64,000 nucleotides of DNA, taken from IMG/VR virus record IMGVR_UViG_3300020447_000005. One strand, 5' to 3'. The first letter of the stretch is position 1. Each line of letters begins with the position of its first letter. The notes under the pieces are model-generated. The model was not told the origin of the DNA, did no database searches, and saw only the letters and a list, made by a program, of their open reading frames with translations. Position numbers and translations under genes: made by a program. Positions 1,161 to 61,852 of this stretch are shown here, in pieces. The DNA is from an uncultured virus (IMG/VR IMGVR_UViG_3300020447_000005). Taxonomy: Duplodnaviria; Heunggongvirae; Uroviricota; Caudoviricetes.

Positions 1161-1196
1161 ATTAGATGGTCTCCATACCTTTTATTGTCGTGATTG

Positions 1197-1898
1197 TTAT
1201 TCGTTCCACTTGAGGTTTTGTACAACCTCACGTAGAGGCAAGGATTCTTCAAAGAGTTCCCAGGTTTTGTTATAAACCCAACCAACAGTCACAGGAATTA
1301 CGTAATTTTCAGACGCTTCCTCTAACTCGCTGATAGCCCCTACTTCTGTTACTTGAAAATCCATCAGTAACAATTGCTGACGTATGGGAGGTGCGAACAT
1401 CGTTAGTTCGTCCACAACCTCTGACGCCAGGATTTCACAACTTGCACCCGTTCCATGGATGCAGAAAATGGTATGACTACCTACCCAGTTCACTGTATGT
1501 AGGTGTATCGCACCTCTTTCGTTTTTATATAAAGAACCAGAGGTTCCTGCTCCCATCACCGCGTCGTTTATTCCTAAACGAGATTGACGATAGGCGTTTC
1601 GTTTGACCAAGATCGCGGGACGCTTCTCTACTAAGTCTCCACGCCACCTATATACGCTTTCAATAACTATACCTGATGAAGCATCCTCCTTCCATATGAA
1701 TTGCTTTAGATCGTTTGCTCGAATACTGTCTTCTGTAGAAAAATGACGTATAAACATATCCCTAAACAGGCCAGTCAATAAGAGCGGCTGCCACCCGTTT
1801 TCACACAACGAATCTACATCAAAATAAGGAGATTGCGTATGCGCTGGATCTTTAGACGGTGGTGTTGTCGTCTCGCACCAATCCTCTGGTGTGCTCAT
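1197..1898 (-). CDS. Putative tail completion/terminator protein
   Basis: 233 aa with a 'KRPAILVKR' motif. Position directly upstream of the sheath candidate is typical. Function inferred from synteny. Confidence 0.45.
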   Translation of the reverse strand: MSTPEDWCETTTPPSKDPAHTQSPYFDVDSLCENGWQPLLLTGLFRDMFIRHFSTEDSIRANDLKQFIWKEDASSGIVIESVYRWRGDLVEKRPAILVKRNAYRQSRLGINDAVMGAGTSGSLYKNERGAIHLHTVNWVGSHTIFCIHGTGASCEILASEVVDELTMFAPPIRQQLLLMDFQVTEVGAISELEEASENYVIPVTVGWVYNKTWELFEESLPLREVVQNLKWNE

Positions 1899-2141
1899 CA
1901 GTACTGTACTTTCGCTTAGGAAGACTACTAACTCGTGTCATTAAATTTAATACGCGTAACGGGTCCACGTCATATTTTAATGGGTCTAGCCGAGACATTA
2001 ATGCCGATTTTACTTTAGCTTTTCGTTCTACTGGATTCGTTTCACCCTTACCGCTACCTAAATAAGGTACGGTCGGTTTAGAGGCCGAGGACAAATCCGC
2101 ACGAGGTGCGGTAGACATAAATTTTGTAGGTATGTGAGGCA
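1852..2141 (-). CDS. Hypothetical protein
   Basis: About 96 aa, tiles between its neighbours on the coding strand. Confidence 0.5.
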
Positions 2142-2163
2142 TCGACAACTTCCGTTTAGAACA

Positions 2164-3018
2164 TCACCCTATTGAATCCTGCTGAGGTATTGCCACTGTG
2201 TATATAACATCAGTGTACGGAGCAGGACGTAATTCTACATTAGCAATTAAAGGGACTCCTCGCATTTCCGCCGCGTTCTGGATACTTTGAATATAGTATC
2301 TATCGTCAGTTTCTCGACTGACCCATACATCACGTGCTTGTAATAACGGAAAATGAAGCATTCGACCCGTTACTACTATATCATTAACAGTACCGCGAAC
2401 CCCTTGGTTATCTATATGTTTGTGGTGCGTTCGGGGGGATAAATCAGCCCATACGCAATCAATGGGATAGAAATATCCGCACTGAAATCCTGTTCCAAAG
2501 CATTCTGGACAATCTGGATTAGTTACTTCGTCTGTCTGAAGATCCAGGCATTTCGTACATCGAACGCCAGTGATCATTCTTTTTAGTAAATAACCGTCTT
2601 GGCTTGTGTACCGATAGCGTAAACGTTCTTTACGTACAATTTCACGAGCTAAACGCCAATCCCGCTGGCCAAGAATACCTTTCTTAGCTACTGGATCAGA
2701 AATGTACGTCCCCGCACTCGTTGTGAGCTTTACGCGATAATGAGTGTATTGTGTTTTACCGTAAACTCGTTTTGTACCGTCTACAGCATAATACGTATTC
2801 TCTATCGCTACTCCGACATTTTCCCAGTCATTAGCGTTGGAATTGCCAGTCTGACCAACTTGCAGCTGGAATTCATACGGAAGTGCGTCGGAAAATGTGT
2901 CTTTCAATGTCCAGCAAACACGTGTGCCGCCACGAATAAGGTAGCTCACATGCACCATGTCAAAAACAGATTGACATACCGGAGGACACTCGTTCTGACA
3001 CGTAGAAGTTGTACTCAT
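2164..3018 (-). CDS. Putative head-closure/neck protein with Zn-ribbon (CxxC...CxxCxGTG)
   Basis: Contains RCTKC...CPECFGTGF, followed by a beta-rich C-terminus (DVWVS...RYYIQSI) resembling head-closure proteins. Located in the neck region. Confidence 0.5.
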   Translation of the reverse strand: MSTTSTCQNECPPVCQSVFDMVHVSYLIRGGTRVCWTLKDTFSDALPYEFQLQVGQTGNSNANDWENVGVAIENTYYAVDGTKRVYGKTQYTHYRVKLTTSAGTYISDPVAKKGILGQRDWRLAREIVRKERLRYRYTSQDGYLLKRMITGVRCTKCLDLQTDEVTNPDCPECFGTGFQCGYFYPIDCVWADLSPRTHHKHIDNQGVRGTVNDIVVTGRMLHFPLLQARDVWVSRETDDRYYIQSIQNAAEMRGVPLIANVELRPAPYTDVIYTVAIPQQDSIG

Positions 3019-3215
3019 TCAGCAGACTTCTCTAAATCTAAAGTAGATGTAGACGTACACAGTTGATTACGTAACTCACATGAAGACGTCATACGTGTTT
3101 CCCAATACCGGCTATCTAGCGCTCGCGACACTTCATCATAGGTAGTGTGGGTCTCAAAAAAATCAGGGGGAATAGGCGACACTGACAAAGTAAAATGATA
3201 ATCGGGCAGCTCCAT
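3015..3215 (-). CDS. Small hypothetical protein
   Basis: AAGGAAGG precedes the ATG (MELPDY...). The stop overlaps the next start (ATGA). Confidence 0.45.
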   Translation of the reverse strand: MELPDYHFTLSVSPIPPDFFETHTTYDEVSRALDSRYWETRMTSSCELRNQLCTSTSTLDLEKSAE

Positions 3216-3228: not shown

Positions 3229-4176
3229 TTAGAATGTACCGCCATAGCTAGAGCCTATAGCTCCAGAGAAGCCAGCAATATTAATTTCCACCTTCTTCGC
3301 TTGAACCATATCTCGAAAATCTTTCATCAACGCGTTTGCGTAAGCAGTGTAATCGCGAGCTTTATTTTTATCGTCAACTGATACACCACCTGCGTTATAA
3401 GGCAGATGATTACGCCGATAATTCGACGCAGCGATTTGCAACAAATAAGCTTGAATACCCTTTAACCACAATTCACGGAAAGGGAACGTCTTAGTTGTCT
3501 GCAATCCAATTGGGGGAGGAGTTTCATTCCAAAATTGAATAGGACGTAAAACAGCTTGCGTGATCTCTGCGGCGTCAAACTCAATGTCGTCTAACAGCAG
3601 ATTGTCGGTAGGAGCATTATCTCGCATAGACAGTCTAATCTCAGATATTGAAGGTGGCCCTAGATTCCATTGATTGCCAGACGACGAAATACCGAAAAGA
3701 CCTCGCCCTACAAAACAAACAGCTTGGTTGCTAAAAATAAGACGACAATCGTCTGAAAAAAGAGCCCATTCTTCCATATAAACACCAGGGTAACGATTGA
3801 TCGACTCAGGTAAGCTGTGAGCCTTCACAGAGCCTGTAGACGCTGTAACGATATCTACGTCCATACTGTAGATACAGTCTGTAGGGCCGTCGTAGCCGCT
3901 TAGCTCCCGCATACGGAGCGTTACGCCACACTCAGGCGATCCTGCGGCATCAAAGGCCTCAGCACAGGACTCAGCAGCAACACTACAGGACGTTGCACAG
4001 TCAGTAAGATTGACTGGTTCCCCATTTGGGGTTCTCATTACCCACTCTAAACGAGCATCTTGCCCCTGCTGTATCTCATGACACTGCATTTTGGGCAAAA
4101 CAGAACACCCGTCTACCTGCGTAATCGGGGGATTAATGATATTTTGATCATTACAGTCAGTGTCCGTTGGAGGCAT
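3229..4176 (-). CDS. Putative virion neck/head-tail connector protein with an N-terminal Ig/BppU-like domain
   Basis: N-part IQQGQD...GEPVNLT resembles BppU-like domains. C-part (EIRLSMRD...LLLDDIEF...NAGGVSVDDK) resembles adaptor proteins. Lies just downstream of the capsid genes. Confidence 0.5.
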   Translation of the reverse strand: MPPTDTDCNDQNIINPPITQVDGCSVLPKMQCHEIQQGQDARLEWVMRTPNGEPVNLTDCATSCSVAAESCAEAFDAAGSPECGVTLRMRELSGYDGPTDCIYSMDVDIVTASTGSVKAHSLPESINRYPGVYMEEWALFSDDCRLIFSNQAVCFVGRGLFGISSSGNQWNLGPPSISEIRLSMRDNAPTDNLLLDDIEFDAAEITQAVLRPIQFWNETPPPIGLQTTKTFPFRELWLKGIQAYLLQIAASNYRRNHLPYNAGGVSVDDKNKARDYTAYANALMKDFRDMVQAKKVEINIAGFSGAIGSSYGGTF

Positions 4177-4212
4177 CCTTAACTCCCTTTGTGAAATTAC
4201 GCATCCTTACGT

Positions 4213-4218
4213 ATTATA
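4213..4218 (-). promoter_or_regulatory. Possible -10 box (TATAAT) upstream of the neck genes
   Basis: Minus strand reads TGTTTATAATAC in the 4177-4243 intergenic gap. No clear -35. Confidence 0.3.
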
Positions 4219-6404: not shown

Positions 6405-7343
6405 CTAACTAAAGGTTGCCTTAGCCAAACCGCTGGTATGACCAATGGTTCCGCCTAGAGTCTCATAAGCAAAGAACTCAATCATGTACGCTTCACGACG
6501 AATGTACATAGTTGTGTCTTCCAAAATATAACTCTTACCAATAAACTTCGGATCTGCAAAGTGATACATCGTATTAGTCGTGACCAAGTTCTTCTTGATC
6601 GTGATAATCCACTTTACGCCCATGAACTCAGCAAGAGCCCAACCGTTACGCATAACCTCTTCACTCAAGTCACCGCCCATTTCGTTGCGACTGAACTTAG
6701 CCACTTCCTTAATGGTGATGTTGTTGAGAAGCACAACGTGAACTTCAAGGTTCGACGGAGTGTTAGGCATGATCTTCAGGCTGTCCCAAAGCGTGTCGCG
6801 GGTGATTCCACCAGCGATAGCTTCGTGCTGGACGACCTCTGACGTAGGAACAATACCGCCAGCAGAACCAACAGCAGTGTTAACCGCAGTGAGAAACTTA
6901 CCGTCTTCCTCTGCCAGCATGTCCTTGATAGCATTGTCGCTAAGGACCTGTCGGATATCCATGTACCAAGTACGAAGCTCATCAACGTCCTTCGTGAAGC
7001 GAGGCGTCACGATACGGTCGAAGCTCACCTTGTAGCGAGGTCCACGAATGTAAAGGTTAGTCGGAAGAGTCGCGAAAGGAATCGAGATGGCCGCAGGGCT
7101 ATCAGGTTCCTTGTCCACGATCTTGACCGGCTTATCTGTATCGACCTGTCGGTCGAGTTCATCATTACTGATGGGCAACGGCGGAATAATCCGTCGATAA
7201 AAGCCATCTTCACGCATCTTTGTGCGTGTGAAATCGTTAACAGCATCAACGGCTTGCTTCTCCAGAAGTGGATCTCTTGATGCCAGCTTCTCGAAGATTG
7301 CCTCATTGAGGAGTTTTGATTCCTCTTGAGTGGTAGCGGACAT
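6405..7343 (-). CDS. Major capsid protein (HK97-like fold)
   Basis: 312 aa with strong SD AAGGAGGT. Pattern R.KMREDGF.RRI.P...F.RI.TP.F.KDVDEL...KDM.AEED.KF resembles large-phage capsid proteins. Gene order is protease-scaffold-decoration-MCP. Confidence 0.75.
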   Translation of the reverse strand: MSATTQEESKLLNEAIFEKLASRDPLLEKQAVDAVNDFTRTKMREDGFYRRIIPPLPISNDELDRQVDTDKPVKIVDKEPDSPAAISIPFATLPTNLYIRGPRYKVSFDRIVTPRFTKDVDELRTWYMDIRQVLSDNAIKDMLAEEDGKFLTAVNTAVGSAGGIVPTSEVVQHEAIAGGITRDTLWDSLKIMPNTPSNLEVHVVLLNNITIKEVAKFSRNEMGGDLSEEVMRNGWALAEFMGVKWIITIKKNLVTTNTMYHFADPKFIGKSYILEDTTMYIRREAYMIEFFAYETLGGTIGHTSGLAKATFS

Positions 7344-7392: not shown

Positions 7393-7941
7393 TTAGGCGG
7401 TATTGATAAGCTTCGGCAAGAAATACGGCCAGAATGCGATGCAATCATGGCCATAACCGTTATCCTGAAAGCCCTTCCGGCTAACAACACCGCAGATGCC
7501 TACTCCTCCATTGTAAGTAGTGGCGTCAATTTTACCTGTCGTCAAACCAGTCAACGGAACATTAGGTTGATAATCTGACTCTGTAACGCCATCAAATTGA
7601 GTTGAAGTCAACTCATAAGCACCAGTAGCGACCAAAGCCATGATGTTACCAGACGGTGAAACAGGAACCCAAACACCCTTGTCACCATCTGGGGCAGCAT
7701 CGCCACCGTCGTTAGCAACATCAGGATCGTCGCTGTTCTGAAAAGTAAACAAAGGCACCTGATCTACTGCATTGCCCAGTTTATAATTTCCGCTAGTCGG
7801 ATCAACATGAACTACAGAACCTGCAAGAACTGTAGTAGTAATGCTTGAATCCAACTTCGTGGAATAATCTACTGCCGATTGCGAAGGCCAACCTTTAAGA
7901 GCGTTGAGCGTATTCGCGGTCATTTGCCGTGGAGCGGCCAT
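7393..7941 (-). CDS. Putative capsid decoration/cement protein
   Basis: 182 aa, Gly-rich beta protein (VLAGSVVHVD...GICGVVS) directly upstream of the MCP. Confidence 0.5.
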   Translation of the reverse strand: MAAPRQMTANTLNALKGWPSQSAVDYSTKLDSSITTTVLAGSVVHVDPTSGNYKLGNAVDQVPLFTFQNSDDPDVANDGGDAAPDGDKGVWVPVSPSGNIMALVATGAYELTSTQFDGVTESDYQPNVPLTGLTTGKIDATTYNGGVGICGVVSRKGFQDNGYGHDCIAFWPYFLPKLINTA

Positions 7942-7999
7942 GGTAAATCCTCCTTGAATTTAAGTAAACAGACTAATACTAGCCTGCGTCCATTTCATG

Positions 8000-8434
8000 T
8001 TACACAGGGTTATTAACAACAGCCCATATAGCCTCATCCGAAGCTTTCTTCTCAGACGTCCGACGTCCAACATAAGGGTCTTCGAGTGAGCTGTAGCTAC
8101 TAACGTTACTTACGCCAGATTGCCCCTCATCCACTCCACGACCTAGATCGCTTGCCGATTTTTCAAGTCGAGCGTGAGCGTCTGAAAGCTTTTCAACAGA
8201 GTTCCGAAGAAGCTCCATTGTACCTGTGTGTGACTGAAGCATACCAGAAGCAGCTTCTTTTTGATGTGCAGCCACACACCCTTTATCAACCATGTGATCA
8301 GCTAGAGAAGCCACTTGTGAGTTAGCTTCTTGCGCTGCCGTATGGTAACTACTATAAGAATCCAAAGCCCGCTTCTGGAGAAGCGAGTTAATCTGGATGC
8401 TTTTTACCAGCATTTCTGCAAGTTTGGGTTTCAT
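8000..8434 (-). CDS. Hypothetical head morphogenesis protein with K-x-A motifs
   Basis: Helical, with QKRA, QKEA, EKSA and KKAS. GGAGG SD. Confidence 0.55.
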   Translation of the reverse strand: MKPKLAEMLVKSIQINSLLQKRALDSYSSYHTAAQEANSQVASLADHMVDKGCVAAHQKEAASGMLQSHTGTMELLRNSVEKLSDAHARLEKSASDLGRGVDEGQSGVSNVSSYSSLEDPYVGRRTSEKKASDEAIWAVVNNPV

Positions 8435-8462
8435 GATAGAAACTCCTCCGTGAGCGTTAATA

Positions 8463-9809: not shown

Positions 9810-9879
9810 ATAGAGCACTCCTTGCGTGATTACAATTAGCAGTTCCGTGTTACGACAGAACCTCACTTAACATAACTCA

Positions 9880-11352
9880 TTAAGTATGATTCTGGCTTAC
9901 ACATAGCCTTGCTGTCAACGGAAATTCCTCATCAGAGGATGCAATTCTTGAAAGAGCGGCTAGTTTGTAGATTGCATAATCTATAGCCAACTTTTCAGCG
10001 TCCTCTGACACATTAGTTTCATTAAACAAATTAACCGCAGGAATAGCCTCTCCACGTAGTGAAGAACGCATACTCCTATCTGCTACGGCTTCCTTATCTA
10101 ACGAATGACTGCTTCGACAAGAAGCAGCCAATGTTCTTTGTTTAGCAGATGCAACTTTTTCTGAAAGTGGGTAAGGATTTGCTTCTACCCGGCTTTCAAT
10201 ATTACTATCCACTAATTTAGTATAAATTTTGGGTAAACATTGCGATGCCTCTTTGACATGCTCAGTTTTATTGGCTAAACGAGCCCAATCCTTAATATGT
10301 AAAACAATCTTTTGGTCTGCCAGAGCCCCAAGACCTTCTGCACATTTTGTCGTGCCCAAAGCACCCAACGCTTCAACATCAAACGGAGGTGTATCAAAGG
10401 CCCGGTAAATCTCTTTAGCCGAGTTGCGAGAAGATCTTTCCAGCTTAGAAAGACCGTAGGCAAGTTTAACCTGAGATGCAATTTTTTCGTTCCAAATACC
10501 AGGAAAACTTTCCTGGTACATAATAACGTGCAAAGGAGCGCTATCTGACTCAGCCATCTTTATATAATCGTTCAATTCAAAAAGGCCGTTATCTGCTGCG
10601 GCTTTAGTTAAATAGTCTGCCTTGGCACCGTATGCAATACGGTCAGCGGGACGAAAAACACGGCTAATATCAAACCAAGTAGGATTAGGATTATCGACAT
10701 GCAAATGATGCATGTCCTGCCCTACTTTTATAAGTCTTGTAAGGTTTGATTGACAACCACCCGCTGCACATTTTTCAGTGGTACAATAATCGGCTCTTGT
10801 TTTTGCCTGATTACCACACCATGAACAAATATCATAAGGCACACGACACGCCATGGAAACTGCAATATCGTCTCCGCGTGCCAATTTCTCTAGCTCTTGA
10901 TCTGCAATAAAGCCGCCATTACGATCCGCAGCGCTCTTCTCTTGGTTTAAAGCAACAAGAAGCTCAACACGTTTCATGGGTTCATTGTAAGCCGCTTTTT
11001 TAATAACGCCAAAATGAGGATCACCGCGTTCAGGTTTATTCTTGTGGTTTCTAAAGAATTTAGCGAACTTTTCGAACGATTGATGATGCTTTTTGCAAGT
11101 CGCTTCTTTAAACCCGTCGCCATTTCTATTAGGACCGTAAGCTTCACTAGCGCCTAAAGCAATAAGGTGTACTGGCACTTCGTCCTTCGCAAATTTAATG
11201 TTGTCAACTTCATCAAGAAACATGTGCCCCGCAGACTTAATAAAGTTACTGCGGTCAGTGCCGATGAGACCACGACTAGAAATAGGAATAGCCATCGCAA
11301 CAGGTCGATCCCATTCCCAACCAGACGGTGATACATATTTGATCATTGACAT
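9880..11352 (-). CDS. Prohead (head maturation) serine protease, HK97/assemblin-like, with Cys-rich insert and K-x-A-rich C-terminal tail
   Basis: Motifs GPNRNGDGF, FRNH (candidate catalytic His), VSMACRVPYDICSWCG (candidate catalytic Ser) and FDISRVFRPAD. Start revised to MSMIK (AAGGA upstream). Confidence 0.7.
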   Translation of the reverse strand: MSMIKYVSPSGWEWDRPVAMAIPISSRGLIGTDRSNFIKSAGHMFLDEVDNIKFAKDEVPVHLIALGASEAYGPNRNGDGFKEATCKKHHQSFEKFAKFFRNHKNKPERGDPHFGVIKKAAYNEPMKRVELLVALNQEKSAADRNGGFIADQELEKLARGDDIAVSMACRVPYDICSWCGNQAKTRADYCTTEKCAAGGCQSNLTRLIKVGQDMHHLHVDNPNPTWFDISRVFRPADRIAYGAKADYLTKAAADNGLFELNDYIKMAESDSAPLHVIMYQESFPGIWNEKIASQVKLAYGLSKLERSSRNSAKEIYRAFDTPPFDVEALGALGTTKCAEGLGALADQKIVLHIKDWARLANKTEHVKEASQCLPKIYTKLVDSNIESRVEANPYPLSEKVASAKQRTLAASCRSSHSLDKEAVADRSMRSSLRGEAIPAVNLFNETNVSEDAEKLAIDYAIYKLAALSRIASSDEEFPLTARLCVSQNHT

Positions 11353-11377
11353 ATAAACATCCTTGTCTACTGAGCAA

Positions 11378-12415
11378 TCAATTACCGAATTGTTGCTGTA
11401 TATCCCTAATTCTATCTTGTGCGCCTTCAGTGTTCGCATACCCCTTAGCAGCAAGCCATGATGCAATTAATGCTGCCGGAATTCCCACTAAAGCCCCCTT
11501 ACCACGCATGTATTTAGGTATATTTGGCAACGATTTTGGTAGTTTATTCATTGTTCTAGCTAAAGAAGAACCCCCTGCATTTCGAGGCGCTTTGCGGGCT
11601 GCCTCTTGCAAAGCATACTGAGAAGCAGTCATAGGGCGAAATACTTCGTCAACATCCCGAAGCGATTGCATTGCCTTTAACGCGTCAGGACGTTTCGACA
11701 GTGTAACTAAATCTTTGTTATTGCCAGATTGTAATAGCGTTAAAATATCCTTCTGTGCGGCGTCGCCCACCACCCCCTTAAGCATTCCTGGAATTTGAGA
11801 CGTCTTGCCTTCAGCACTTTGCTGAGCAAGAACTTTAGCAACATTTCTCCAAGCACCAGGAGAAGTGTTCTTACCTTGAGCAGCAAGCCCCATTCCCGTT
11901 CCAACATCCGCCGCACCACCAATTCCCAGGGCAGACAAAACAGGATGATCTTTTGCAGTTTGCCCTGCCCAATGTAGCGGGGAATTAAGAAACGTAGGCT
12001 TAGCCTGTCGATCAAGATTTTGAACTTCTTCTATGTCTTTAGCTAACTCAGCAGTATTAGGTGCAGCGGGAAATATTTCATCTGAGATATTTTTACGGTC
12101 GCCTAAAAGCCCTAAACCACCGCCAAGTGCTCCACCGGCAAGAGCGCCAGTTAAAGCATCACGAAAAGGATGTTTCTTCCCGCGACGGAATAAACTAGAT
12201 CCAAGGCCTAACGTTCCGCCAACACCTGCACCTATCAGTGCCTTTTGTGCAGCAGGATTATCCTTCAACCAGTCTCCCGCTCCCTGCAAACTTGAGGACA
12301 AGTCAAAAGCAAGCTTGTCCATTGGCTTACTAAAACCATGACGCAATCCCACCTTTCGGCGGGCTAACGTTAGTGCAACGTCATCTACACTTTGATTGTT
12401 AAAGGATTGAGTCAT
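11378..12415 (-). CDS. Glycine-zipper internal virion protein candidate
   Basis: DKLA motif, then GxxxG-rich hydrophobic segments (IGAGVGGTLGLG, GALAGGALGGGLG). No Cys. Confidence 0.55.
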   Translation of the reverse strand: MTQSFNNQSVDDVALTLARRKVGLRHGFSKPMDKLAFDLSSSLQGAGDWLKDNPAAQKALIGAGVGGTLGLGSSLFRRGKKHPFRDALTGALAGGALGGGLGLLGDRKNISDEIFPAAPNTAELAKDIEEVQNLDRQAKPTFLNSPLHWAGQTAKDHPVLSALGIGGAADVGTGMGLAAQGKNTSPGAWRNVAKVLAQQSAEGKTSQIPGMLKGVVGDAAQKDILTLLQSGNNKDLVTLSKRPDALKAMQSLRDVDEVFRPMTASQYALQEAARKAPRNAGGSSLARTMNKLPKSLPNIPKYMRGKGALVGIPAALIASWLAAKGYANTEGAQDRIRDIQQQFGN

Positions 12416-18255: not shown

Positions 18256-18271
18256 GGACTAATCCTTGTCG

Positions 18272-42840: not shown

Positions 42841-42870
42841 TACACCGAGAATAGTTCGTATTTTACGAAC

Positions 42871-44540: not shown

Positions 44541-44636
44541 TCACTGTTCCCTCCGTGGTGAGTGAATAGTCCATGTAGCGTGTGCTTAATTTAGCATTAT
44601 TCCCCTTAGTAATGGAATAGAAATACGTGGTTTAAT

Positions 44637-48816: not shown

Positions 48817-48851
48817 ACGAACCTCCATGTTCGGCACGAACGATAAATAAA

Positions 48852-49385: not shown

Positions 49386-50041
49386 TAAAAATCTTTCAGC
49401 TTCTGTTGTTTTCGAAAATCTTCCCAGCCGTCTGATTTTTTAAACCCTTTCCTTACCGCATTAAAATAAACAGGTGGCACAGACCTGTCTATGTAAGTGC
49501 CTTTTTCTTTGTTTCTAATCCTCCTCGTACCTCTTTTTTCAAAATCCCACGGCGAATAACGAGGATCTAGTGTATCCATTAAAAACTCTTTCCGCCATAT
49601 CGAAGGCTGCATGGAAATCAAATACTTACTGTGCGTCGCAATTTGATCATATTTAAGATTACCTACTCCAACGTATTTTTGATACCCACTAACAGAAATC
49701 TGAAGCCTATTCATCTTATGTAACTTCATGTCTTCTACGTAGGTATTTAACTGCTGCTCAGAGTAAGAATAGTGAAAAAAGTAATCGTCTAAAATAAAAA
49801 AGATATAGTCTTCTGACGCCTTTATCCCCTCCCGCATTCTTCGGCCCCACGAAATATCTTTACCACACAATATCGTTTCAAACTTTGTATTAACGTAATC
49901 AGGAACAGAAATAGTCTCCCCAACAAAAATGTTTTGCGTATGATGCTGCCAATACCTATCGAAGCAAATAGAAAAGTTCTCCCACAAACTACGGTAAGCA
50001 TCACACGTACCGATTAACACGCTTAAGTTATTCATTGTCAA
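49385..50041 (-). CDS. Putative glycosyltransferase (GT-A-like)
   Basis: YIFFILDDYF, SMQPSIWRKE and SPWDFE. Confidence 0.55.
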   Translation of the reverse strand: MTMNNLSVLIGTCDAYRSLWENFSICFDRYWQHHTQNIFVGETISVPDYVNTKFETILCGKDISWGRRMREGIKASEDYIFFILDDYFFHYSYSEQQLNTYVEDMKLHKMNRLQISVSGYQKYVGVGNLKYDQIATHSKYLISMQPSIWRKEFLMDTLDPRYSPWDFEKRGTRRIRNKEKGTYIDRSVPPVYFNAVRKGFKKSDGWEDFRKQQKLKDF

Positions 50042-50901
50042 ACCAATGATTTAATCTCTTTCACAGTGAATTGTTCAACTTCGTTAGAGTACGGCCCCTC
50101 TTCAAGAATCTTCTCGTGCATATTCTCGCCGGGCTGTAACCCAATCTCCTCGATCTCTATCTCCTGCCCATTCGAGTACTTCTCGATCATCGCTTGAAGT
50201 AGGTCTGCTATTTGAATTGACTTCATCGAAGGGCAATACGGAGAACAATCTTTCGCGTGAAGTAAACAATCCTCAATTAACACTATCGCTTGCTCAATCG
50301 ACCAGAAGAACCTTGTTGCGCCAGGGTCAGTAACAATAATCTTCTTACCCTCAGTAATTAACTTCTTCCACTTACACAACACAGAACCCGTAGAGTATAA
50401 GACGTTCCCATAGCGGACAAGTCGATAAGCACAGGATGGGTTTAGCGACTGGAACTGCTGGCAAATACGCTCCATTAAGAACTTAGACGCCCCGTAAACA
50501 CCGTTTATTTGAGCAGCTTTGTCCGTGGATATAGCTAATATGAAATGAACATCGTAATTCAAAGCCTCTTCGTACACGTTTAAAGAGCCCATCACGTTAG
50601 AGCGTATACACTCTATAGATTGTGTCTCCGCTAACCCAACATGCTTAAACGCGGCTAAATGAAATATCCCGTGAACATCCTTGATCGCTTGTCGAACGCT
50701 AAACCTATCCGCCACGTCTCCTGTTAGAATTTCGACGTCTGGGTAGTCTTCCTTCAAATAAATCAGGGCGCATTCACTTCGAGATAGAACTCTAGCAAAT
50801 GCGCCCTGTGTTGTAATGTAATCAACAAGCGGCTTTCCAAGGAATCCAGAACCACCGGTAACTAGGTATAACTTATCCTTCTCTACCCTTATCTGCTCCA
50901 T
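50038..50901 (-). CDS. UDP-GlcNAc 4,6-dehydratase-like (PseB/CapD, polysaccharide biosynthesis SDR)
   Basis: TGGSGFLG, FHLAAFKHV, STDKA, YGASK, RYGNV, TRFF and GENMHE. Confidence 0.85.
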   Translation of the reverse strand: MEQIRVEKDKLYLVTGGSGFLGKPLVDYITTQGAFARVLSRSECALIYLKEDYPDVEILTGDVADRFSVRQAIKDVHGIFHLAAFKHVGLAETQSIECIRSNVMGSLNVYEEALNYDVHFILAISTDKAAQINGVYGASKFLMERICQQFQSLNPSCAYRLVRYGNVLYSTGSVLCKWKKLITEGKKIIVTDPGATRFFWSIEQAIVLIEDCLLHAKDCSPYCPSMKSIQIADLLQAMIEKYSNGQEIEIEEIGLQPGENMHEKILEEGPYSNEVEQFTVKEIKSLV

Positions 50902-50940
50902 AGGATTAACATCCGTGTATTAGGACTCCACTAACTATAA

Positions 50941-51354: not shown

Positions 51355-51606
51355 CTATAGGGGTGGATCTTCACTCCATCCACTACTTAACTCACTTTTT
51401 ATTTCTTCATGAGTCAGAATACCACTTAGATGAGTTACTGCTGCAACACTTGCTGGAATAACCGGCCCATCCCATTTAACAAAAGCTTTGTCTCCTGCGA
51501 GGTTGGTTATTGCTGTATCAATACTCGTCTCACAAACTTCCGCAAAATCAATATTTGATAAATCGGATGGCGCAATCAAAACCCAATGTCGATTCTCATG
51601 ACTCAT
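51355..51606 (-). CDS. Small protein commonly adjacent to LamG fibre genes
   Basis: IDF..V.ETS.DT...KAFVKW...THEEI...W pattern. Coupled to the 2091-aa gene. Confidence 0.55.
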   Translation of the reverse strand: MSHENRHWVLIAPSDLSNIDFAEVCETSIDTAITNLAGDKAFVKWDGPVIPASVAAVTHLSGILTHEEIKSELSSGWSEDPPL

Positions 51607-54600
51607 AATCCAAATCTCCTTTTATCACCGTTGTAGAGGTCTTCTACTTCCGCATCAGTAAGTGGCCGGTCATACATTAATAACTGGGCAATGTTCATTT
51701 CAAAGAAAGTATAAGTATTGTATGTACCGATCCATAACGCGTCGGTGGGGGCAGTATCTTCAGAGTAATCAGTTTTTGCCCCCGTATCCTTGTCGTTATT
51801 GACGTAACAATCCATGGTTCCATCGTTTCGATTAACCAGGACGAGTTGACGCCATTCGTCAGCTGCGAACTTGGTAGTACCGTCATAAAAAGTCCCGTAC
51901 CCCGACGGGTATCCAAAGCTCTGAAATCCCGAAGCCGCAGTATTTCCTACGGTGTTTTGAATAATGAAGGAAAGAGCATAGCTTTCAAAAGAAGCGAACC
52001 AGTTGGGCCCATTTACTAGGGTTGTTGGCTTGATCCACATCACTACAGTAAAGCCGTCCACAAGTGCACTATTGTCCCGATCTAACTCAACATAATCATT
52101 CGACCCGTCAAGTACTAAACTGCCTAGATTTTCCGGATCAAATGCTGGTCCGTTTATCAATGATGCCTCTGTGCCGTCAACTGTATTAGTCCAGACTGTT
52201 GGCGTATTAATGTTGTAAGAATTCGGGTCGGCAGCATCTAACTTCGCAACCATCCCGCTAGTGACAACAGGCTCTTGATATCCATGACCAAACCTCAATT
52301 TGTCACCGTCGTAAAGTTCACCAACTTCGGTGTCAGTAAGTGCGCGGTCATAAACTAATACTTGAGCTATTTGTGTCTCTAAAGGATTACCACCGCCTGA
52401 ACCTTGGCTGGCGAAGTAGAAATTATCGCCAGGGGCACCAGTGGAGAAACCGCTTTCAGCCGTTGAATCTTTCACGCCATCCACCCACGCATCAATGTCG
52501 CCATCGTCATTGTTTCGCCACACAAATTGATACCATGTGTCCGTCGCAACTCGTGTATCACACCAGTCACCCCAAGCTTTCCCAAACCCATAGCTAACGA
52601 GACCAGAAAGCGATCCAGCACATCTGCTTGGTGTCACGCCAAATTCCGGGCTATAGGTGCCAAAGTTCATAAGCCAACCTTGATCTGATTGACCACTCCC
52701 AGATAACTCCCCTAACTTCACCCACATCACAACAGTAAATCCGTCGGTCAAATCTGAGTTATCTCTAGCTAAACTCGCGTAGTCATTTGTCCCGTCAAAT
52801 TGTAAGCATCCGCCCTTTTCAATATCGAATGCTGGTCCGTTAATTAGAGACGCCTCAACAGAGTCAATTACGTTAGTCCAGACTGTAGGATCTGCTACAT
52901 CATAGGAGGCAGGATTGGCAACATCTAGCGATACGACCAACCCGCTTGTAACTGCTGGCGCTAGATATGCCAGATTAAACCTCGCCTTGTCACCAGCCCA
53001 AAGTTGACCGACTTCTGTGTCAGTTAGCGCCCGGTCGTAAATTAGCACCGTAGCTATTTTACTTTCCAAAAATGCCCCCACCCACATTGGGGTGTTGTCT
53101 TCGTTAGTCAGGCATGAATAATATAGATTATCGAGAGGGGCGGTATCCGTATCAAAACCAGTCGGAGGCGACGAATCCTTAAGATTATTCAAGAAGCCGT
53201 CAATCGTTCCATCATTCTGGTTAACGAAGGCTACCATGTGCCAATCGCCGATAATAAGCTTTAAATCAGACCATTCTTGAAAACCGGCTGGCCCATAACC
53301 ATTACTCACGAGTTGGTCATAAGACGCAACGTGCCCAAGGGTCAGACGTGTGCCCCCGGCATTCCCAGTGGTCTGTACATAAGCATAACTTTCACCAGTC
53401 GGAGCGCGCTCTAGTGGCTTGTACCAAAAGACCATAGTCCACCCTGAATCTAAATCAGAGTTGTCCCTGGGGAAATTGGCGTAGTCGCTAACCCCATCAA
53501 ACGAAATGCAGCCTATACTTTCAAAATCAAATGCTGCTCCGTCTACCAATGATGCGTCAGTGTCATCAATTGTATTAGTCCAAACTGTCGGCGCACTTGA
53601 GTCATAACTATCGGAATTCGCTGGATCTAGCAGTACGACCAAACCGCTTGTAACTGCTGGCGACTCATAACATGCGACCTGTATTAGTTCAAAGTTAGCC
53701 TTACTCTCGCCGTAAACAGTTCCTGGCTGGCCACCCTGAGCGGAGACAGAAGTAATCCTGATCTTGTAATCTGTTGCGCTGGTAATGTCACACGACACAT
53801 CCCAACTATAAGTACCAGTGTTTGATTCACTGGATGAAAGTGTTGTGTCTAAACTGCTGCCCTTGTACAGCTCAATCTTTACATTACCAACTATACTAAT
53901 ACTGGTCCAAGTAATATCCTGTGTGGTACCCACAGTGAAGGCTTCACCACCAGCAGGATTTGTGATCGTGAAAGAAGGCAAACGACCAAACCGTTCCTGG
54001 CCTGCTTCCCAAAGTGAGGTAACTTCCGCATCAGTTATCGACCGATCGTAGACTAGCGTTTGTGCAATCTTACACATATGCTCGAGCGACCCACCACCTA
54101 ACGATGCTAGATACATGTCATCGTTTGGAGCCGTATCTACGTGGAAGACCCCCGGAGGACCAGTGTCTTTAACCCCGTCAACAAACAGATCAATCGTTCC
54201 ATCATTTTGATTGACGAACGTGAGAAAACACCAAGTTTGATTGTCAACGGAAGAATTAGTACTCCAAAGAGAATTTGCAGAACCAAACCCCCAGGCCTTA
54301 AACTGCCCGTTCTGCTGGTGTGCTAGGTTCAAGTCATTCCCCGTATACGCAGCCGTCCCGTCACCAAACGCGAAAAAATAAGCGGTCGCTACAGGAAGAG
54401 ACTTAGTGTAATACCAGAGACTAATCGTGAACCCGCTATCTAAATCTGAGTTATCACGAACAATCTTAAAATAGTCGTCCGTCCCGTCGAAAGATATGTT
54501 TCCTGCCTTTTCAATATCGAATGCTGGTCCGTTCTCTAGATCTCCCTCAACAGAGTCAATTGTATTAGTCCAAACTGTAGGATCTGCTACGTCATAGGAA

Positions 54601-57600
54601 GCAGAATTAGCAGCGTCCAACAATACCACCAATCCGCTCGTAACTGCTGGCGCTTCATATGCCAGATTAAACCTTGCCTTATCGCCAGCCCAAAGTTGGC
54701 CAATTTCTGTGTCAGTTAGCGCCCGGTCGTAAACTAGTGATTGCGCAACCGTAACTTCAATATTGTACCCCGGCCCATAATAAGTACCTAAACCCACAAG
54801 CCGGAAATCATCAGGAGGGGCAGTATCAATATCGAAATCACTGGGCGGGCTAGTGGCCTTGATATTATTCACAAAGCCATCCATTACTCCATCATTTTGG
54901 TTCACCCACGCAATCATGCTCCAGTCATTTAAGTATGTATACTGTCCGCCTGTGTAGGTTGAATAACCTGAAGTTCCAAACCCGTATGCCATCAACTTAT
55001 TGTTACTGATAATCCAACCAAGCTGAAAATCGTGGCCAAAATTAAACATATTTCCGTAACTGTTATTGCCTGTTACTATCTCCTGTGGTCGAACCCAGTA
55101 CACGACAGTAAAGCCCGAATCCAAATCAGAATTGTCACGAACCAGTTTATATGAGTCGTCAACCCCGTCGAATTGTAGTGACCCCCCGCCAGCAGTATCA
55201 AATATAGCTCCTCCGGCAGTCGTACCATCAAGCAGTTCCCCATCAACATCGTCGATGGCATTTGTCCAAACTGTCGGCGCACTTGAATCGTAAGAGTCTG
55301 GGTCCGCAGCGTCTATCTGAACGACAAGACCACTTGTGACTGCCGGAGGACTATACGATCCACCCGCTGTTACGGTAAAGGTCGCGTCACTCTCATCGTA
55401 AACACTGGTATCTACTAACGAAGTAATCCTGACCTTATAGTCTGTTCCGGCTGCAAGAGAAGATGATATGGCCCAACTGTAACTATTATTGTTTGCTGTG
55501 TCAGACGTAAGTGTTGAATCCAGACTGCTGTCTTTGTAGAGTTCTATCTTAACGTTGCCGGTTACGTTAATACTGCTCCAAGTAATACTCTGCGTGGTAC
55601 CCGTAGTCCAATCTTCACCACCGTCAGGAGCCGTAACTGTGATAGAAGCCGGTTCAGATACAGTAAAGTTAGCGTCACTTTCATCGTAAACACTGTTGTC
55701 ATCGATTGACTCAATCCTGATCTTGTAATCTGTTCCGGCTGCAAGAGAAGATGATATGGCCCAACTAAAAATGTTATCATTGGCCGTAGCGTTTGAAAGT
55801 GTTGAATCATAACTACCGCCTTTGTACACATATATCCTTAAAGCTCCGGTTACGTTAACACTTGTCCAAGTAATGTTATGTGTAGTACCCGCAGCCCAAT
55901 CTTCGCCGCCGTCTGGACTTGTGACCGTGATGGAAGCTGGTTCAGTTAAAGTAAAATTAGCGTCGCTCTCATCGTAGACAGTTCCGTCCGCTAGCGAAGT
56001 AATCCTAATCTTGTAGTCTGTCGCGCCTGCTAAACCTGACGCTATAGCCCAGCTGTAAGTGCCGGTGTTTGCTGTATCGGACGTAAGTGTGAAATCTAAA
56101 CTTCCACCCTTATACAACTGTATTTTTACATTTCCAGTCAAGTTGACACTACTCCAAGTAATACTCTGTGTAGTACCCGTAGTCCAATCTTCACCACCGT
56201 CAGGACTTGTGACTGTGATGGTGGAAGGCTCAGATAAAGTAAAGGCTATATTACTTTCATCAGAAACACTAGCATCTGCTAAAGATGTAATTCTAATCTT
56301 GTAATCTGCTCCAGCGGTCAGCCCAGACGATATAGCCCAGCTGTAGCTATCGTCGTTTGCTGTGTCAGACGTAAGTGTTGAGTCTAAACTACCGCCTTTA
56401 TACAACTCGATTTTTACGTTGCCAGTTACGTTAGTGCTGCTCCAAGTAATACTCTGTGTGGTACCCGTAGTCCAATCTTCACCACCATTAGGAGCCGCAA
56501 CGGTAATAGACGGTTGAAAACCTAAAGTAAAGTTAGCGTCACTTTCATCATAAACACGTTCATCCTCCAAACAAGTAATCCTGATCTTATAGTCTGCGGC
56601 GGATTCCAACCCCATACCTATAGACCAGAGATAACTGCCGTCATTTCCTTCGCCAGCGTCAATTACGGAATACAAACTGCCAGCCTTATACAACTCGATT
56701 TTTACATTTCCAGCCGGTTCTATGTTTTTGCTACTCCAGGTAACCCAATGGGAGGAACCCTTATACCAATTTTCGCTGCCGTTAGGGCTCGTGACCGTGA
56801 TGGAAGGCTCAGGAGTCGGTTCGGCTTGACCAGTAACTAAGCGAGAGGGATTATAAGACACTAATCCGGCGGGACTCCGCACAATCTTGCCCATTCCGCC
56901 CACAACTCGGACCAGAAACGCGTATGCCCCAACGTTATAGTTAGCACCCTGCGGTATATCCGTTCCAACAATGTCTGAGGTGACGGCTGCAATAGCTAAC
57001 CCAGTACTCCTTGCCAGAGAGTCAGCTGGAAGCCGGAAGTCTCCATTGGGTGCGTCAGCCCAAATATCTGCTTCAGCAACATTGATTTGGTTTCCTGTGC
57101 CACCATCATCGTCAGCCGTGGCGTCGGTTGATATGTTGTTTCCAACCGTGATCGAATCCCCACCGCCAATCAAAAAATCAGTCGACCCGCTTTCGCCCGC
57201 CACAATATTTTGCGCCACCAGCGTATCGACTTGACTGCCCCACGTAAAACTCGCGTGTAATCCTCTAGTGGTCATCCCGTAGATCGTGCAGTTGCGGACA
57301 GTATAGTTACTATCAGGTGAATATGAAGCAGACGACAAATATATGCCGGTGGTGCCCCTCCAGATCACGCAATTCTCGAACGTCACATCTGTATCATCGG
57401 CTGAAGATGCGTTTGTTGAGAAATATACGTTCCCAGCGGTTGGCGTTACATGCGTTTTTTTTAACCACAGCCGTTTGAATTCAAGTTTCATGCTGCTCGC
57501 AGCACCGCCATGCAAAATGCAGCCTTTATTGTTCTTGCTGGTGAGACACAGAATCCCCTCGAATGTGAAATAATCAGCCCGATAACCGTATATCTTGATA

Positions 57601-57878
57601 TTTTCGGTGGTTGTTACTGAACTGTAAGCACCACTAGTCGTGGACCACGAACCGTTGTGTTCATGACCCGGCGCAGCGTAGATTTTTATCCGTCCCGCTT
57701 CGGACGACGGTTCCTCGGCCCACGCGCCTTTGGAGAATAAACCCAAGTTTGTCCCGCTATAGCACACCGCGTGCCACGGGTCGGCGTTGGTGGATGAAAT
57801 TGCCGCCCCGTTTTCAAACCCCTCTAGGTCTGTGTAGTCGCCACCATCCGCTTTAATGTGTTTTAACTGAATCGTCAT
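51603..57878 (-). CDS. 2091-aa repeat protein: beta-helix + 6 Ser/Thr-rich Ig-like repeats + 5 LamG/ConA-like domains (fibre/adhesin)
   Basis: Six ITVTxPxGGExW...ITW...YKIRITS...DESDANF units and five VTSGLVV.LD.A...SY...FDG.DDY...YDRALT..E units. Confidence 0.85.
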   Translation of the reverse strand: MTIQLKHIKADGGDYTDLEGFENGAAISSTNADPWHAVCYSGTNLGLFSKGAWAEEPSSEAGRIKIYAAPGHEHNGSWSTTSGAYSSVTTTENIKIYGYRADYFTFEGILCLTSKNNKGCILHGGAASSMKLEFKRLWLKKTHVTPTAGNVYFSTNASSADDTDVTFENCVIWRGTTGIYLSSASYSPDSNYTVRNCTIYGMTTRGLHASFTWGSQVDTLVAQNIVAGESGSTDFLIGGGDSITVGNNISTDATADDDGGTGNQINVAEADIWADAPNGDFRLPADSLARSTGLAIAAVTSDIVGTDIPQGANYNVGAYAFLVRVVGGMGKIVRSPAGLVSYNPSRLVTGQAEPTPEPSITVTSPNGSENWYKGSSHWVTWSSKNIEPAGNVKIELYKAGSLYSVIDAGEGNDGSYLWSIGMGLESAADYKIRITCLEDERVYDESDANFTLGFQPSITVAAPNGGEDWTTGTTQSITWSSTNVTGNVKIELYKGGSLDSTLTSDTANDDSYSWAISSGLTAGADYKIRITSLADASVSDESNIAFTLSEPSTITVTSPDGGEDWTTGTTQSITWSSVNLTGNVKIQLYKGGSLDFTLTSDTANTGTYSWAIASGLAGATDYKIRITSLADGTVYDESDANFTLTEPASITVTSPDGGEDWAAGTTHNITWTSVNVTGALRIYVYKGGSYDSTLSNATANDNIFSWAISSSLAAGTDYKIRIESIDDNSVYDESDANFTVSEPASITVTAPDGGEDWTTGTTQSITWSSINVTGNVKIELYKDSSLDSTLTSDTANNNSYSWAISSSLAAGTDYKVRITSLVDTSVYDESDATFTVTAGGSYSPPAVTSGLVVQIDAADPDSYDSSAPTVWTNAIDDVDGELLDGTTAGGAIFDTAGGGSLQFDGVDDSYKLVRDNSDLDSGFTVVYWVRPQEIVTGNNSYGNMFNFGHDFQLGWIISNNKLMAYGFGTSGYSTYTGGQYTYLNDWSMIAWVNQNDGVMDGFVNNIKATSPPSDFDIDTAPPDDFRLVGLGTYYGPGYNIEVTVAQSLVYDRALTDTEIGQLWAGDKARFNLAYEAPAVTSGLVVLLDAANSASYDVADPTVWTNTIDSVEGDLENGPAFDIEKAGNISFDGTDDYFKIVRDNSDLDSGFTISLWYYTKSLPVATAYFFAFGDGTAAYTGNDLNLAHQQNGQFKAWGFGSANSLWSTNSSVDNQTWCFLTFVNQNDGTIDLFVDGVKDTGPPGVFHVDTAPNDDMYLASLGGGSLEHMCKIAQTLVYDRSITDAEVTSLWEAGQERFGRLPSFTITNPAGGEAFTVGTTQDITWTSISIVGNVKIELYKGSSLDTTLSSSESNTGTYSWDVSCDITSATDYKIRITSVSAQGGQPGTVYGESKANFELIQVACYESPAVTSGLVVLLDPANSDSYDSSAPTVWTNTIDDTDASLVDGAAFDFESIGCISFDGVSDYANFPRDNSDLDSGWTMVFWYKPLERAPTGESYAYVQTTGNAGGTRLTLGHVASYDQLVSNGYGPAGFQEWSDLKLIIGDWHMVAFVNQNDGTIDGFLNNLKDSSPPTGFDTDTAPLDNLYYSCLTNEDNTPMWVGAFLESKIATVLIYDRALTDTEVGQLWAGDKARFNLAYLAPAVTSGLVVSLDVANPASYDVADPTVWTNVIDSVEASLINGPAFDIEKGGCLQFDGTNDYASLARDNSDLTDGFTVVMWVKLGELSGSGQSDQGWLMNFGTYSPEFGVTPSRCAGSLSGLVSYGFGKAWGDWCDTRVATDTWYQFVWRNNDDGDIDAWVDGVKDSTAESGFSTGAPGDNFYFASQGSGGGNPLETQIAQVLVYDRALTDTEVGELYDGDKLRFGHGYQEPVVTSGMVAKLDAADPNSYNINTPTVWTNTVDGTEASLINGPAFDPENLGSLVLDGSNDYVELDRDNSALVDGFTVVMWIKPTTLVNGPNWFASFESYALSFIIQNTVGNTAASGFQSFGYPSGYGTFYDGTTKFAADEWRQLVLVNRNDGTMDCYVNNDKDTGAKTDYSEDTAPTDALWIGTYNTYTFFEMNIAQLLMYDRPLTDAEVEDLYNGDKRRFGL

Positions 57879-58852: not shown

Positions 58853-58934
58853 ACGGCCCTCCTTGGCACAAACAGGCATAAATTACGCGGGAATTGTTAC
58901 TCGCACTGGCTACTCCCTCCTGCTATGTAAACTC

Positions 58935-61334: not shown

Positions 61335-61339
61335 GCTAC

Positions 61340-61374
61340 AAAAAAAGAGCTGAGGACGTCTCCTCAGCTCTTTT
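61340..61374. terminator. Bidirectional intrinsic terminator
   Basis: AAAAGAGCTGAGGA-CGTC-TCCTCAGCTCTTTT. Confidence 0.85.
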
Positions 61375-61500
61375 ATTTACATCTTAAGCTCTGTATTGTC
61401 TACCAGCCGCAGAGCATATTCGGCGTGTATATTTACGGCAATACCTAGATTACCGGTTACGTACACTTTAGCACTAAAAATACGCAAAGTAAACGCCACC

Positions 61501-61755
61501 TCACTTGGGCCATTTTGGTATTGAAGGAGAACAACGACCTGTAAGAGCACACAATCGTTTTTTTAACGGTATGATCTTTTCCGCGTGACGTAAAATATCT
61601 TTTTGCTTCGCCTCCGCCCCTGGCAAAGCACTTATAAATCCAACGGCGCTGGAAGGAATGTAGTTAGTTCTCTGTATCACAACGATAGCGTTTTGATATC
61701 TACGAATGTAATACTCGATCTTTTCGATCTCACTCCACGCCCCTAGCCTTTTCAC
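61501..61755 (-). CDS. Hypothetical protein
   Basis: 84 aa, GTG start with AAGGAAGG upstream. Confidence 0.4.
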   Translation of the reverse strand: MKRLGAWSEIEKIEYYIRRYQNAIVVIQRTNYIPSSAVGFISALPGAEAKQKDILRHAEKIIPLKKRLCALTGRCSPSIPKWPK

Positions 61756-61852
61756 GATTTAAGAATTTCGCCTTCCTTGGCTAAACCCTAGCTTTTTTAT
61801 TTCTCTTGTTAGTTATCTACTAATAATTCAATTTATCCAAGCCGAATTTTTG

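Follow-up and report, generated by a model that had tools for sequence, protein, structure and literature searches.

The window analyzed here is a stretch of 64,000 nucleotides (nt) from an uncultured virus of the Caudoviricetes (IMG/VR record IMGVR_UViG_3300020447_000005). Its long open reading frames (ORFs) all lie on the minus strand, the GC skew is steadily negative, and the sole convincing plus-strand gene is csrA. In the leaders of about 15 of its roughly 70 genes, the GGA of the Shine-Dalgarno (SD) sequence stands at positions 3-5 of a hairpin hexaloop, and the capsid gene and eight others of this set lie in the block from 1 to 19.6 kb. In most cases the loop reads A-N-G-G-A-N and has a C-G closing pair, beyond which 1-5 more covarying pairs follow. 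The first-pass annotation had listed 14 decamers and three related hairpins of this type, had called csrA the only plus-strand gene, and had proposed that the mRNAs of capsid and other late genes are gated by CsrA. All 17 listed elements were recovered in place on the minus strand, and the claim about the strand of csrA also held.

The csrA product was matched to Pfam PF02599 with an E-value of 1.5e-22; its score of 79.7 bits exceeds the cut-off of 27, and its residues 1-55 cover profile positions 1-52 of 53, in keeping with the earlier description of the gene as intact. The protein aligned end to end with the structures of E. coli CsrA and RsmE (residues 1-58 on 1y00), and its PDB matches included 2jpp. 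The N-terminal MLxLxRK motif is kept, as is the HREE arginine, the phage segment 'sihREEv' aligning on 'svhREEi' of E. coli CsrA 1y00. Passages of PMC7366521 state that the arginine at the beta5/helix junction of CsrA/RsmA recognizes the first G of GGA. Judged by its sequence, the gene encodes a genuine canonical CsrA, and the protein looks functional. From its 40-50% identity to solved dimers, it is predicted to form a homodimer with two RNA-binding surfaces.

The csrA leader (about 36975-37043) contains several GGA motifs and has its SD within a predicted stem (fold of -20.3 kcal/mol, z -2.07). A promoter scan around the gene gave consensus matches only, and a minus-strand ORF overlapping csrA had no family match. 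The nearest bacterial CsrA sequences (54-72% identity) came almost all from metagenome-assembled genomes of Planctomycetota, which hints at a planctomycete host and origin. A few of the nearest sequences (among loci L324-L403) were labeled Nitrosopumilus, Saccharibacteria, Limnohabitans or Klebsiella; mis-binning of phage or planctomycete contigs may account for these. Several relatives (G001, G007, G008, G009, G011, and G012) have an additional csrA paralog of more divergent sequence, for example MLVLTRKPGEII...VRRGEL, and in G012 two CsrA-like stretches share one 184-amino-acid (aa) frame.

The hairpins were counted as follows. Starts were picked by SD strength, a criterion blind to the flanks; a GGA lying 2-20 nt upstream of a predicted start was taken as start-proximal; and a hexaloop site was defined as an NNGGAN loop (GGA at loop positions 3-5) closed by two Watson-Crick pairs. 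By this definition 20 of the 65 start-proximal GGAs (31%) were hexaloop sites, compared with 5.8% of 1023 distant GGAs, so that the claimed hexaloop over many translation starts is present. Among 36 loop registers scanned around the start-proximal GGAs, the remaining 35 gave 1-10 sites each. In an SD-preserving control, the 3' flanks were permuted among the same 65 sites, which leaves every SD intact; 4.97 ± 2.11 sites were expected, and 20 was reached in none of 20,000 permutations. With longest-ORF starts, 12 of 46 were hexaloop sites, a count reached in 3 of 20,000 permutations. These results confirmed that the start-proximal hexaloops are real and far beyond chance.

The pattern could in principle be an artifact of composition, in which a plain SD (AAGGAGG) happens to follow a C and to precede any base. 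The whole-window count of CANGGANG fits such a view, since 32 occurrences (27 on the minus strand and 5 on the plus strand) were unremarkable alone against 24.3 ± 4.4 in shuffles, and chance alone should yield about 5 of the 20 two-pair sites. However, no flank permutation reached the observed count, the other registers stayed at background, compensatory changes occur across 45 capsid leaders, and csrA-less relatives with the same SD usage have z-scores near 0 (see below for both), which makes this explanation extremely improbable. What distinguished the CANGGANG cores was their placement and their flanks: 15 of the 27 minus-strand occurrences lay at most 20 nt upstream of a predicted start, and a Watson-Crick flanking pair was found at 15 of 15 start-proximal occurrences versus 4 of 12 distant ones.

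Stems at the 20 window sites are 2-6 pairs long; 14 of the sites are closed by C-G, and 17 have A as the first loop base. The gap from GGA to start was 7-12 nt at 14 of the 20 sites, and the six outliers were at 14-18 nt. The weakest are the AA/TT-closed sites (4176, 31667, and 57878), together with 37650 and 61771. Most of the sites in the first-pass annotation thus stood, while three or four proved weak; the starts near 37650-37659 and 61771-61780 are uncertain and 15-18 nt away. The 1-19.6 kb block with the capsid gene was richer in hairpin genes than the remainder (9/20 vs 6/50, p 0.007).

To these counts we added a consensus from nine csrA-positive sequences, with 210 hairpins among 1312 sites. 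Loop position 1 was A in 73% of the hairpins and in 33% of the non-hairpin SD sites, C-G closed 115 of the 210 (55%), and the third pair was Watson-Crick in 104 of the 210 hairpins versus 270 of 1102 non-hairpin sites. The leading loops were ACGGAG (41), AAGGAG (40), and ATGGAG (16), and the C of the commonest loop is not complementary to the anti-SD. The distance from GGA to start peaked at 7-8 nt and was mostly 5-12 nt, so the site overlaps the SD. The CsrA consensus is A/U-C-A-N-G-G-A-N-G-U/A. The C-G closing pair, the A at loop position 1, and the GGA at positions 3-5 match the CsrA/RsmE target as described in passages of Sobrero and Valverde (2020; PMC7366521), namely a short hairpin with GGA in its apical loop. 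Complementarity to the anti-SD alone is no explanation of these features, in agreement with the earlier argument that a plain SD does not suffice.

The hairpin over the capsid start could be followed across relatives. The 20 genes of the 1-19.6 kb block gave no PHROG match and a Pfam match in only one, a glycosyltransferase; the product of 6405-7343 was therefore modeled with AlphaFold2 (AF2) from an alignment of 22 relatives. The model had a pLDDT (predicted local distance difference test) of 70.5, and its Foldseek matches in the PDB numbered 288 (E ≤ 0.001), led by phage capsids of HK97 type and encapsulins with probability 1.0 and modest template modeling (TM) scores of 0.4-0.6. The structure model supports an HK97-fold major capsid protein, as the first-pass annotation had labeled it. 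For the gene at 9880-11352, the nearest named atlas clusters were prohead proteases (score 0.89), which is a lead only, and the atlas comparison gave nothing for 12399-13910.

The loop A[C/T/A]GGAG recurs in the capsid leaders of nearly all close relatives; its C-G closing pair is invariant, and the stems vary (GGAAC/GTTCC, AGAC/GTCT, GATC/GATC, TTC/GAA, CAC/GTG, and TAC/GTA). Among 45 distinct 22-nt rows, 85.8% of the cells were paired compared with 65.1% after shuffling (reached in 0 of 500); because GGA served as the anchor and the rows were taken from around the hairpin, the alignment is tilted toward structure, a bias that the slid and shuffled controls address. There were 42 double-change (compensatory) cells versus 10.9 expected, and every slid register scored lower. 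When the 76 capsid loci (about 20 kb each) were pooled, 201 of 1100 start-proximal GGAs were in the hexaloop register versus a mean of 7.0% in other registers.

Conservation extends to other leaders. In csrA-positive relatives, the orthologs of the genes starting at 1160, 7343, 7941, 8434, and 9809 keep the hairpin with differing stems. These are GTGC/GCAC, CTCGC/GCGGG, ATTGGC/GCCAGT, and GGC/GCC around ACGGAG for the gene at 1160; TC/GA, TTC/GAA, TTGTC/GACAA, and AGAC/GTCT for 7393-7941; and TCTC/GAGA, AAGCTC/GAGTTT, GATC/GATC, and TGCTC/GAGTG for 8000-8434. G002, G003, and G004 lack the hairpin at all five positions, apart from a different loop, CAGGAG, that G004 has at its 7941 ortholog. 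Farther along the block, the G012 ortholog of 13894-14925 carries TGGTC[ACGGAC]GACCG, and orthologs of 15652-18243 carry TCC[ACGGAT]GGA or TTCC[ACGGAT]GGAA. In the window the loop at 18248-18257 contains an in-frame ATG, and the ortholog hairpins with the ACGGAT loop stand upstream of the start.

Two variants of these leaders were also seen. G003 and G004, in which no canonical csrA was found, have AAATC[AGGAG]GATTT and AAATC[CAGGAG]GATTT at the ortholog of 7393-7941, so that the stem survives and the CsrA-type hexaloop does not. In the 9809 leader (about 9816-9830, minus strand), the window itself has a pentaloop, GCA[AGGAG]TGC, one base shorter at the conserved hairpin position, where csrA-positive relatives have AGCA[AAGGAG]TGCT or GGTA[AAGGAG]TACC.

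The individual hairpins are listed in Table 1 together with csrA and other genes of the window. The hairpins CCGT[GAGGAC]ACGG (13920-13933) and the one at 14900-14915 were missing from the first-pass list. The hairpin at 4198-4213 could be a second site. Two further elements have CsrA-type loops. An 8-pair hairpin, ACTTTATC[ATGGAT]GATGAGGT at 42725-42752 (minus strand), lies within a 261-nt intergenic stretch (42610-42870). The next predicted start is 124 nt away, and this hairpin may represent a small RNA or part of a leader. A GC-rich, near-ideal hairpin, GGCCC[ACGGAT]GGGCC at 49295-49310 (minus strand), is located inside the gene 48852-49385, about 80 nt past its start.

Table 1. Leader hairpins (loop in square brackets), csrA and other genes in the window.
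Feature	Position	Strand	Remarks
GGT[ATGGAG]ACC	1168-1179	-	Before ATG at 1160
TACG[TAAGGATG]CGTA, alternatively a U-G-closed hexaloop	4198-4213	-	22 nt upstream of gene 3229-4176
TTAC[AAGGAG]GTAA	7350-7363	-	Over SD of predicted major capsid gene 6405-7343; GGA 11 nt before ATG
TC[AAGGAG]GA	7948-7957	-	Over SD of gene 7393-7941
GCTC[ACGGAG]GAGT	8442-8455	-	Over SD of gene 8000-8434
GTAGAC[AAGGAT]GTTTAT	11353-11370	-	Immediately before ATG of gene 9880-11352; related hairpin is minimum-energy structure
CCGT[GAGGAC]ACGG and GAC[ACGGAG]GTT	13915-13933	-	Overlapping, mutually exclusive; before gene 12399-13910
CTTAC[ACGGAC]GTAAG	14900-14915	-	Before ATG at 14898 of gene 13894-14925; minimum-energy structure
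CC[ATGGAT]GG	18248-18257	-	Before ATG at 18243 of gene 15652-18243
GTGC[AAGGAC]GCGC	19463-19476	-	Before ATG at 19459 of gene 18272-19459; minimum-energy structure
RNA polymerase beta' C-terminal part	19597-22494	-	965 aa; Rpb1 domain 5
AGTTA[AAGGAG]TAACT	23852-23867	-	Before gene 23152-23847; A-T closing pair; not minimum-energy fold
RNA polymerase beta/beta' fusion	23879-28303	-	1474 aa; Rpb2 domains 3 and 6, Rpb1 domains 1 and 2
AGC[AAGGAT]GCT	30820-30831	-	Loop ATG is predicted start of gene 30390-30824
Ribonucleotide reductase	33346-35325		Family match
SET-domain protein	36400-36918	-	Adjoins csrA; Pfam SET, E 1.6e-7
csrA	37044-37250	+	68 aa
TC[ATGGAT]GA	37650-37659	-	Weak; 15-17 nt upstream of SD-supported start at 37635
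CC[ACGGAG]GG	44549-44558	-	Before metallophosphoesterase gene 43779-44540
CGAAC[ATGGAG]GTTCG	48818-48833	-	Before ATG at 48816; contained in fold of -12.7 kcal/mol
AC[ACGGAT]GT	50909-50918	-	Before sugar-nucleotide enzyme gene 50038-50901
Protein with five Laminin_G_3 and five Kre9/KNH-like Ig repeats	51603-57878	-	2091 aa; family match
GCC[AAGGAG]GGC	58856-58867	-	Before ATG at 58852
GCC[AAGGAA]GGC	61770-61781	-	Weak; 18 nt before GTG start of uncertain 84-aa ORF

The relation between hairpins and csrA was then compared across relatives. The gene is a trait of the family, since Pfam CsrA was matched in 28 of the 36 related records, including 19 of the 21 with a completeness of at least 90%; a tblastn re-check of csrA absence, counting matches to query residues 1-68, agreed with the Pfam search. 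Fourteen whole related records and the window were scored, each against its own flank permutation. With a canonical csrA, hexaloop sites made up 19 of 66 start-proximal GGAs in the window (z 6.7), 32/172 in G006 (z 6.1), 32/165 in G021 (z 7.0), 34/195 in G013 (z 5.6), 19/97 in G036 (z 5.1), 23/182 in G001 (z 3.6), 26/224 in G014 (z 3.0), 13/87 in G012 (z 2.7), and 12/124 in G011 (z 1.6), so that eight of these nine sequences were enriched (z 2.7-7.0). Enrichment was absent in four relatives in which no canonical csrA was found: G003 (none found, 100% complete; 11/154, z 0.3), the distant G030 (none found, 100% complete; 9/196, z -1.0), G004 (weak match only; 11/172, z -0.7), and G002 (divergent paralog only; 11/180, z -0.2). 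Their SD usage is similar, with 154-196 start-proximal GGAs each. The other two records without a csrA match, G005 (84% complete) and G015 (89%), gave 14/151 (z 2.0) and 20/187 (z 2.5).

The z-scores of canonical-csrA records exceeded those of the others (one-sided Mann-Whitney p = 0.0008), and the pooled counts were 210/1312 versus 76/1040 (Fisher p = 6e-11). In the capsid tree, G003 and G004 are nested beside the csrA-positive G001 inside the clade of the window, and G002 forms a separate branch; at least two close-relative lineages therefore lack both a canonical csrA and the enrichment. These results indicate that the link between csrA and the hairpins is strong but not proof. The co-loss pattern favors the phage copy of CsrA over the host CsrA as the partner of the hairpins, of which the earlier annotation had named either or both.

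A reading that dispenses with CsrA is that the hairpins hold the SD in an open loop for ribosome loading or protect the 5' leader, the co-occurrence with csrA reflecting shared descent or host range. The SDs within hairpins are indeed the strongest (median duplex energy with the anti-SD -8.2 vs -6.5 kcal/mol), the capsid gene, expected to be highly expressed, is included, and the retention of SD hairpins with other loops at the 7941 ortholog of G003 and G004, together with the partial enrichment in G005 and G015, would also suit it, as would the lack of enriched second CsrA sites described below. However, the enrichment is limited to the one loop register that has the CsrA target geometry, ribosome access needs neither the A at loop position 1 nor the C-G closing pair, and the enrichment is gone in the four relatives without a canonical csrA, covering at least two close-relative lineages, despite their similar SD usage. 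We regard this reading as unlikely. Upstream gaps were modestly longer at hairpin genes (median 39 vs 13 nt, p 0.04), and the idea that these are simply the first genes of operons was rejected because the difference is only modest.

Another possibility is that the hairpins are read by a different RNA-binding factor of phage or host (a translational repressor, a nuclease, or a defense or counter-defense protein), the phage CsrA acting mainly on host mRNAs. Published proposals do assign phage CsrA a host-directed role, such as CRISPR-Cas repression in the passages of PMC8450108 considered here, and the 54 of 66 phage proteins without a PHROG match leave room for an unrecognized binder. On the other hand, the motif equals the known CsrA target description and tracks canonical csrA across relatives, and no alternative candidate protein was identified. 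We consider this possibility unlikely, and somewhat more so than an open-SD role.

We judge it fairly probable that the phage has an internal CsrA translational regulon. The two computational checks proposed in the first-pass annotation, against SD-preserving controls and against relatives without a canonical csrA, both turned out in favor of its interpretation. Because csrA-less relatives are without the hairpins, the phage probably controls its own translation. The SD hexaloops would most likely be binding sites of the phage's own CsrA dimer, which, when bound, would cover the ribosome-binding site and lower the translation of these mRNAs, as at bacterial CsrA/RsmE targets. The outcome would be a layer of post-transcriptional control over a defined subset of phage genes. 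Since no antagonist was found, our guess is that relief could come from titration of CsrA by the accumulating target mRNAs themselves. We infer CsrA binding, repression rather than activation or stabilization, and the relief route by analogy with the bacterial systems.

Several observations weigh against this interpretation. The genome comparison rests on few independent lineages, and the hosts may differ, the GC content ranging from 45 to 66% across the compared genomes. G005 and G015 still show z-scores of 2.0 and 2.5, the csrA-positive G011 reaches only 1.6, and the close relative G001 shows the hairpin at 1 of 20 readable ortholog leaders. On viral contigs outside this family that bear csrA, 74 loci of about 6 kb around the gene gave 51/506 sites, a modest signal (z 2.8). 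E. coli CsrA targets typically have at least two GGA sites per leader, bridged by one dimer. Here second GGA sites were not enriched (1.01 per 67 nt upstream at 203 hairpin genes vs 1.01 at 908 non-hairpin SD genes), so the two-site bridging layout is unsupported; ANGGA was slightly more frequent at hairpin genes (0.29 vs 0.21 per 67 nt upstream, p 0.025), and individual leaders with a second hairpin exist, such as that with 4198-4213. The hairpins are thermodynamically marginal, the exact hairpin being the minimum-energy structure in three of seven folded gene leaders, with z-scores from +0.3 to -2.0. At the third pair, G-U and A-C mismatches were equally common (16 vs 17), so that this comparison does not tell RNA from DNA pairing and is no separate proof that the stems form in RNA.

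No antagonist emerged for the regulatory circuit: none of 30 relatives gave a FliW match, the window had no Csr/Rsm RNA of Rfam, and 15 sequences had no cluster of more than three A.GGA. hairpins per 200 nt. Self-repression of the capsid gene needs a relief step, and none was pinpointed. Furthermore, hairpin genes are spread over whole genomes in relatives; of the proposed regulon of late genes, the greater density in the head-gene block stood, and the term 'late genes' itself proved too narrow.

A broader scenario is possible but doubtful as a whole. Jumbo phages from marine and fresh waters, a whole family whose hosts are probably Planctomycetota, would run a self-contained translational program. 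In it the captured CsrA would have become a factor dedicated to the phage and would act chiefly on phage mRNAs (those for the capsid and the head module, and about 10-25% of all genes), and lineages losing the gene would lose the hairpins as well. Without an antagonist, the target mRNAs would titrate CsrA and thereby set a threshold timer that delays virion proteins until late transcripts outnumber the regulator.

Phage T4 offers a precedent of a kind: RegA is a phage-encoded translational repressor that acts on many T4 mRNAs, those of early genes, at their ribosome-binding sites. The likeness lies in a phage-encoded RNA-binding protein at the ribosome-binding sites of its own mRNAs, which is here a prediction from sequence; RegA belongs to a protein family unrelated to CsrA, and its recognition is not that of a GGA hexaloop hairpin. 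Bacterial CsrA/RsmA/RsmE (Pseudomonas RsmE-hcnA, PDB 2jpp; E. coli glgC, cstA, and pgaA) is of the same protein family as the phage protein, and the targets have the same shape, which the passages of PMC7366521 describe as a short hairpin presenting GGA in its apical loop over the SD. Unlike in bacterial Csr/Rsm systems, the regulator and the predicted targets are here both viral, virion genes included, neither a sponge RNA nor FliW turned up, and there was no enrichment of second GGA sites.

Phage csrA genes themselves are already known. According to passages of PMC7366521 they are carried by 30 of 2517 phage genomes, and those of Campa et al. (2021; PMC8450108) report them in GenBank phages and IMG/VR contigs and propose a host-directed anti-CRISPR role. 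In phage PTXU04, knock-down of the csrA gene gp28 led to smaller plaques, as given in the part of PMC11879866 used here, which calls a role in the life cycle previously untested. These phages likewise carry a csrA gene, and the same passages of the three papers propose manipulation of host pathways such as CRISPR-Cas and contain no description of CsrA-type hairpins at the ribosome-binding sites of the phages themselves. A full-text literature search likewise returned no description of such hairpins on a phage's own ribosome-binding sites; the comparison with relatives without a canonical csrA is an addition of this analysis.

Phage-borne csrA is widespread, the passages of PMC8450108 and PMC11879866 proposing host manipulation and, in one knock-down, showing a fitness effect. 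Conserved, covarying hairpins that are lost together with csrA point to another role, in which a virus would have turned a global regulator of bacteria into the core of its own translational regulon. A defined candidate RNA-protein pair for bench work is the phage CsrA with the capsid leader. If the interpretation is correct, a post-transcriptional layer would be added to gene timing in jumbo phages that already bring their own RNA polymerase.

The window is a piece of an uncultured marine jumbo phage, because its capsid protein has 76 matching loci in IMG/VR, on contigs that reach 235 kb, and DNA identical to the window is present in marine metagenomes of several studies (DNA runs only); related viral contigs measure about 150-235 kb. 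Megablast of 8 kb against GenBank phages gave no match, 54 of 66 window proteins had no PHROG match, and neither tRNAs nor Rfam families at the gathering threshold were found in the window. Domain content indicates that the phage carries its own multisubunit RNA polymerase with a beta-beta' fusion (Table 1). Also recognizable were a LuxR/GerE-type regulator and many sugar-nucleotide and glycosyltransferase genes, and the 2091-aa repeat protein is possibly a fiber or adhesin.

Two repeats were seen near the polymerase genes. In the 231-aa protein of 23152-23847 (minus strand), the N-terminal part consists of repeated M-D-P-A-M-G-G-A-P-P units, visible in the DNA as many in-frame ATGs in near-identical contexts. 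On the plus strand, antisense to the beta' gene, the 18-nt hairpin-forming string GTGCGG[GGGGAA]CTGTGT occurs identically at 20237 and 20567, 330 nt apart, which indicates an internal repeat.

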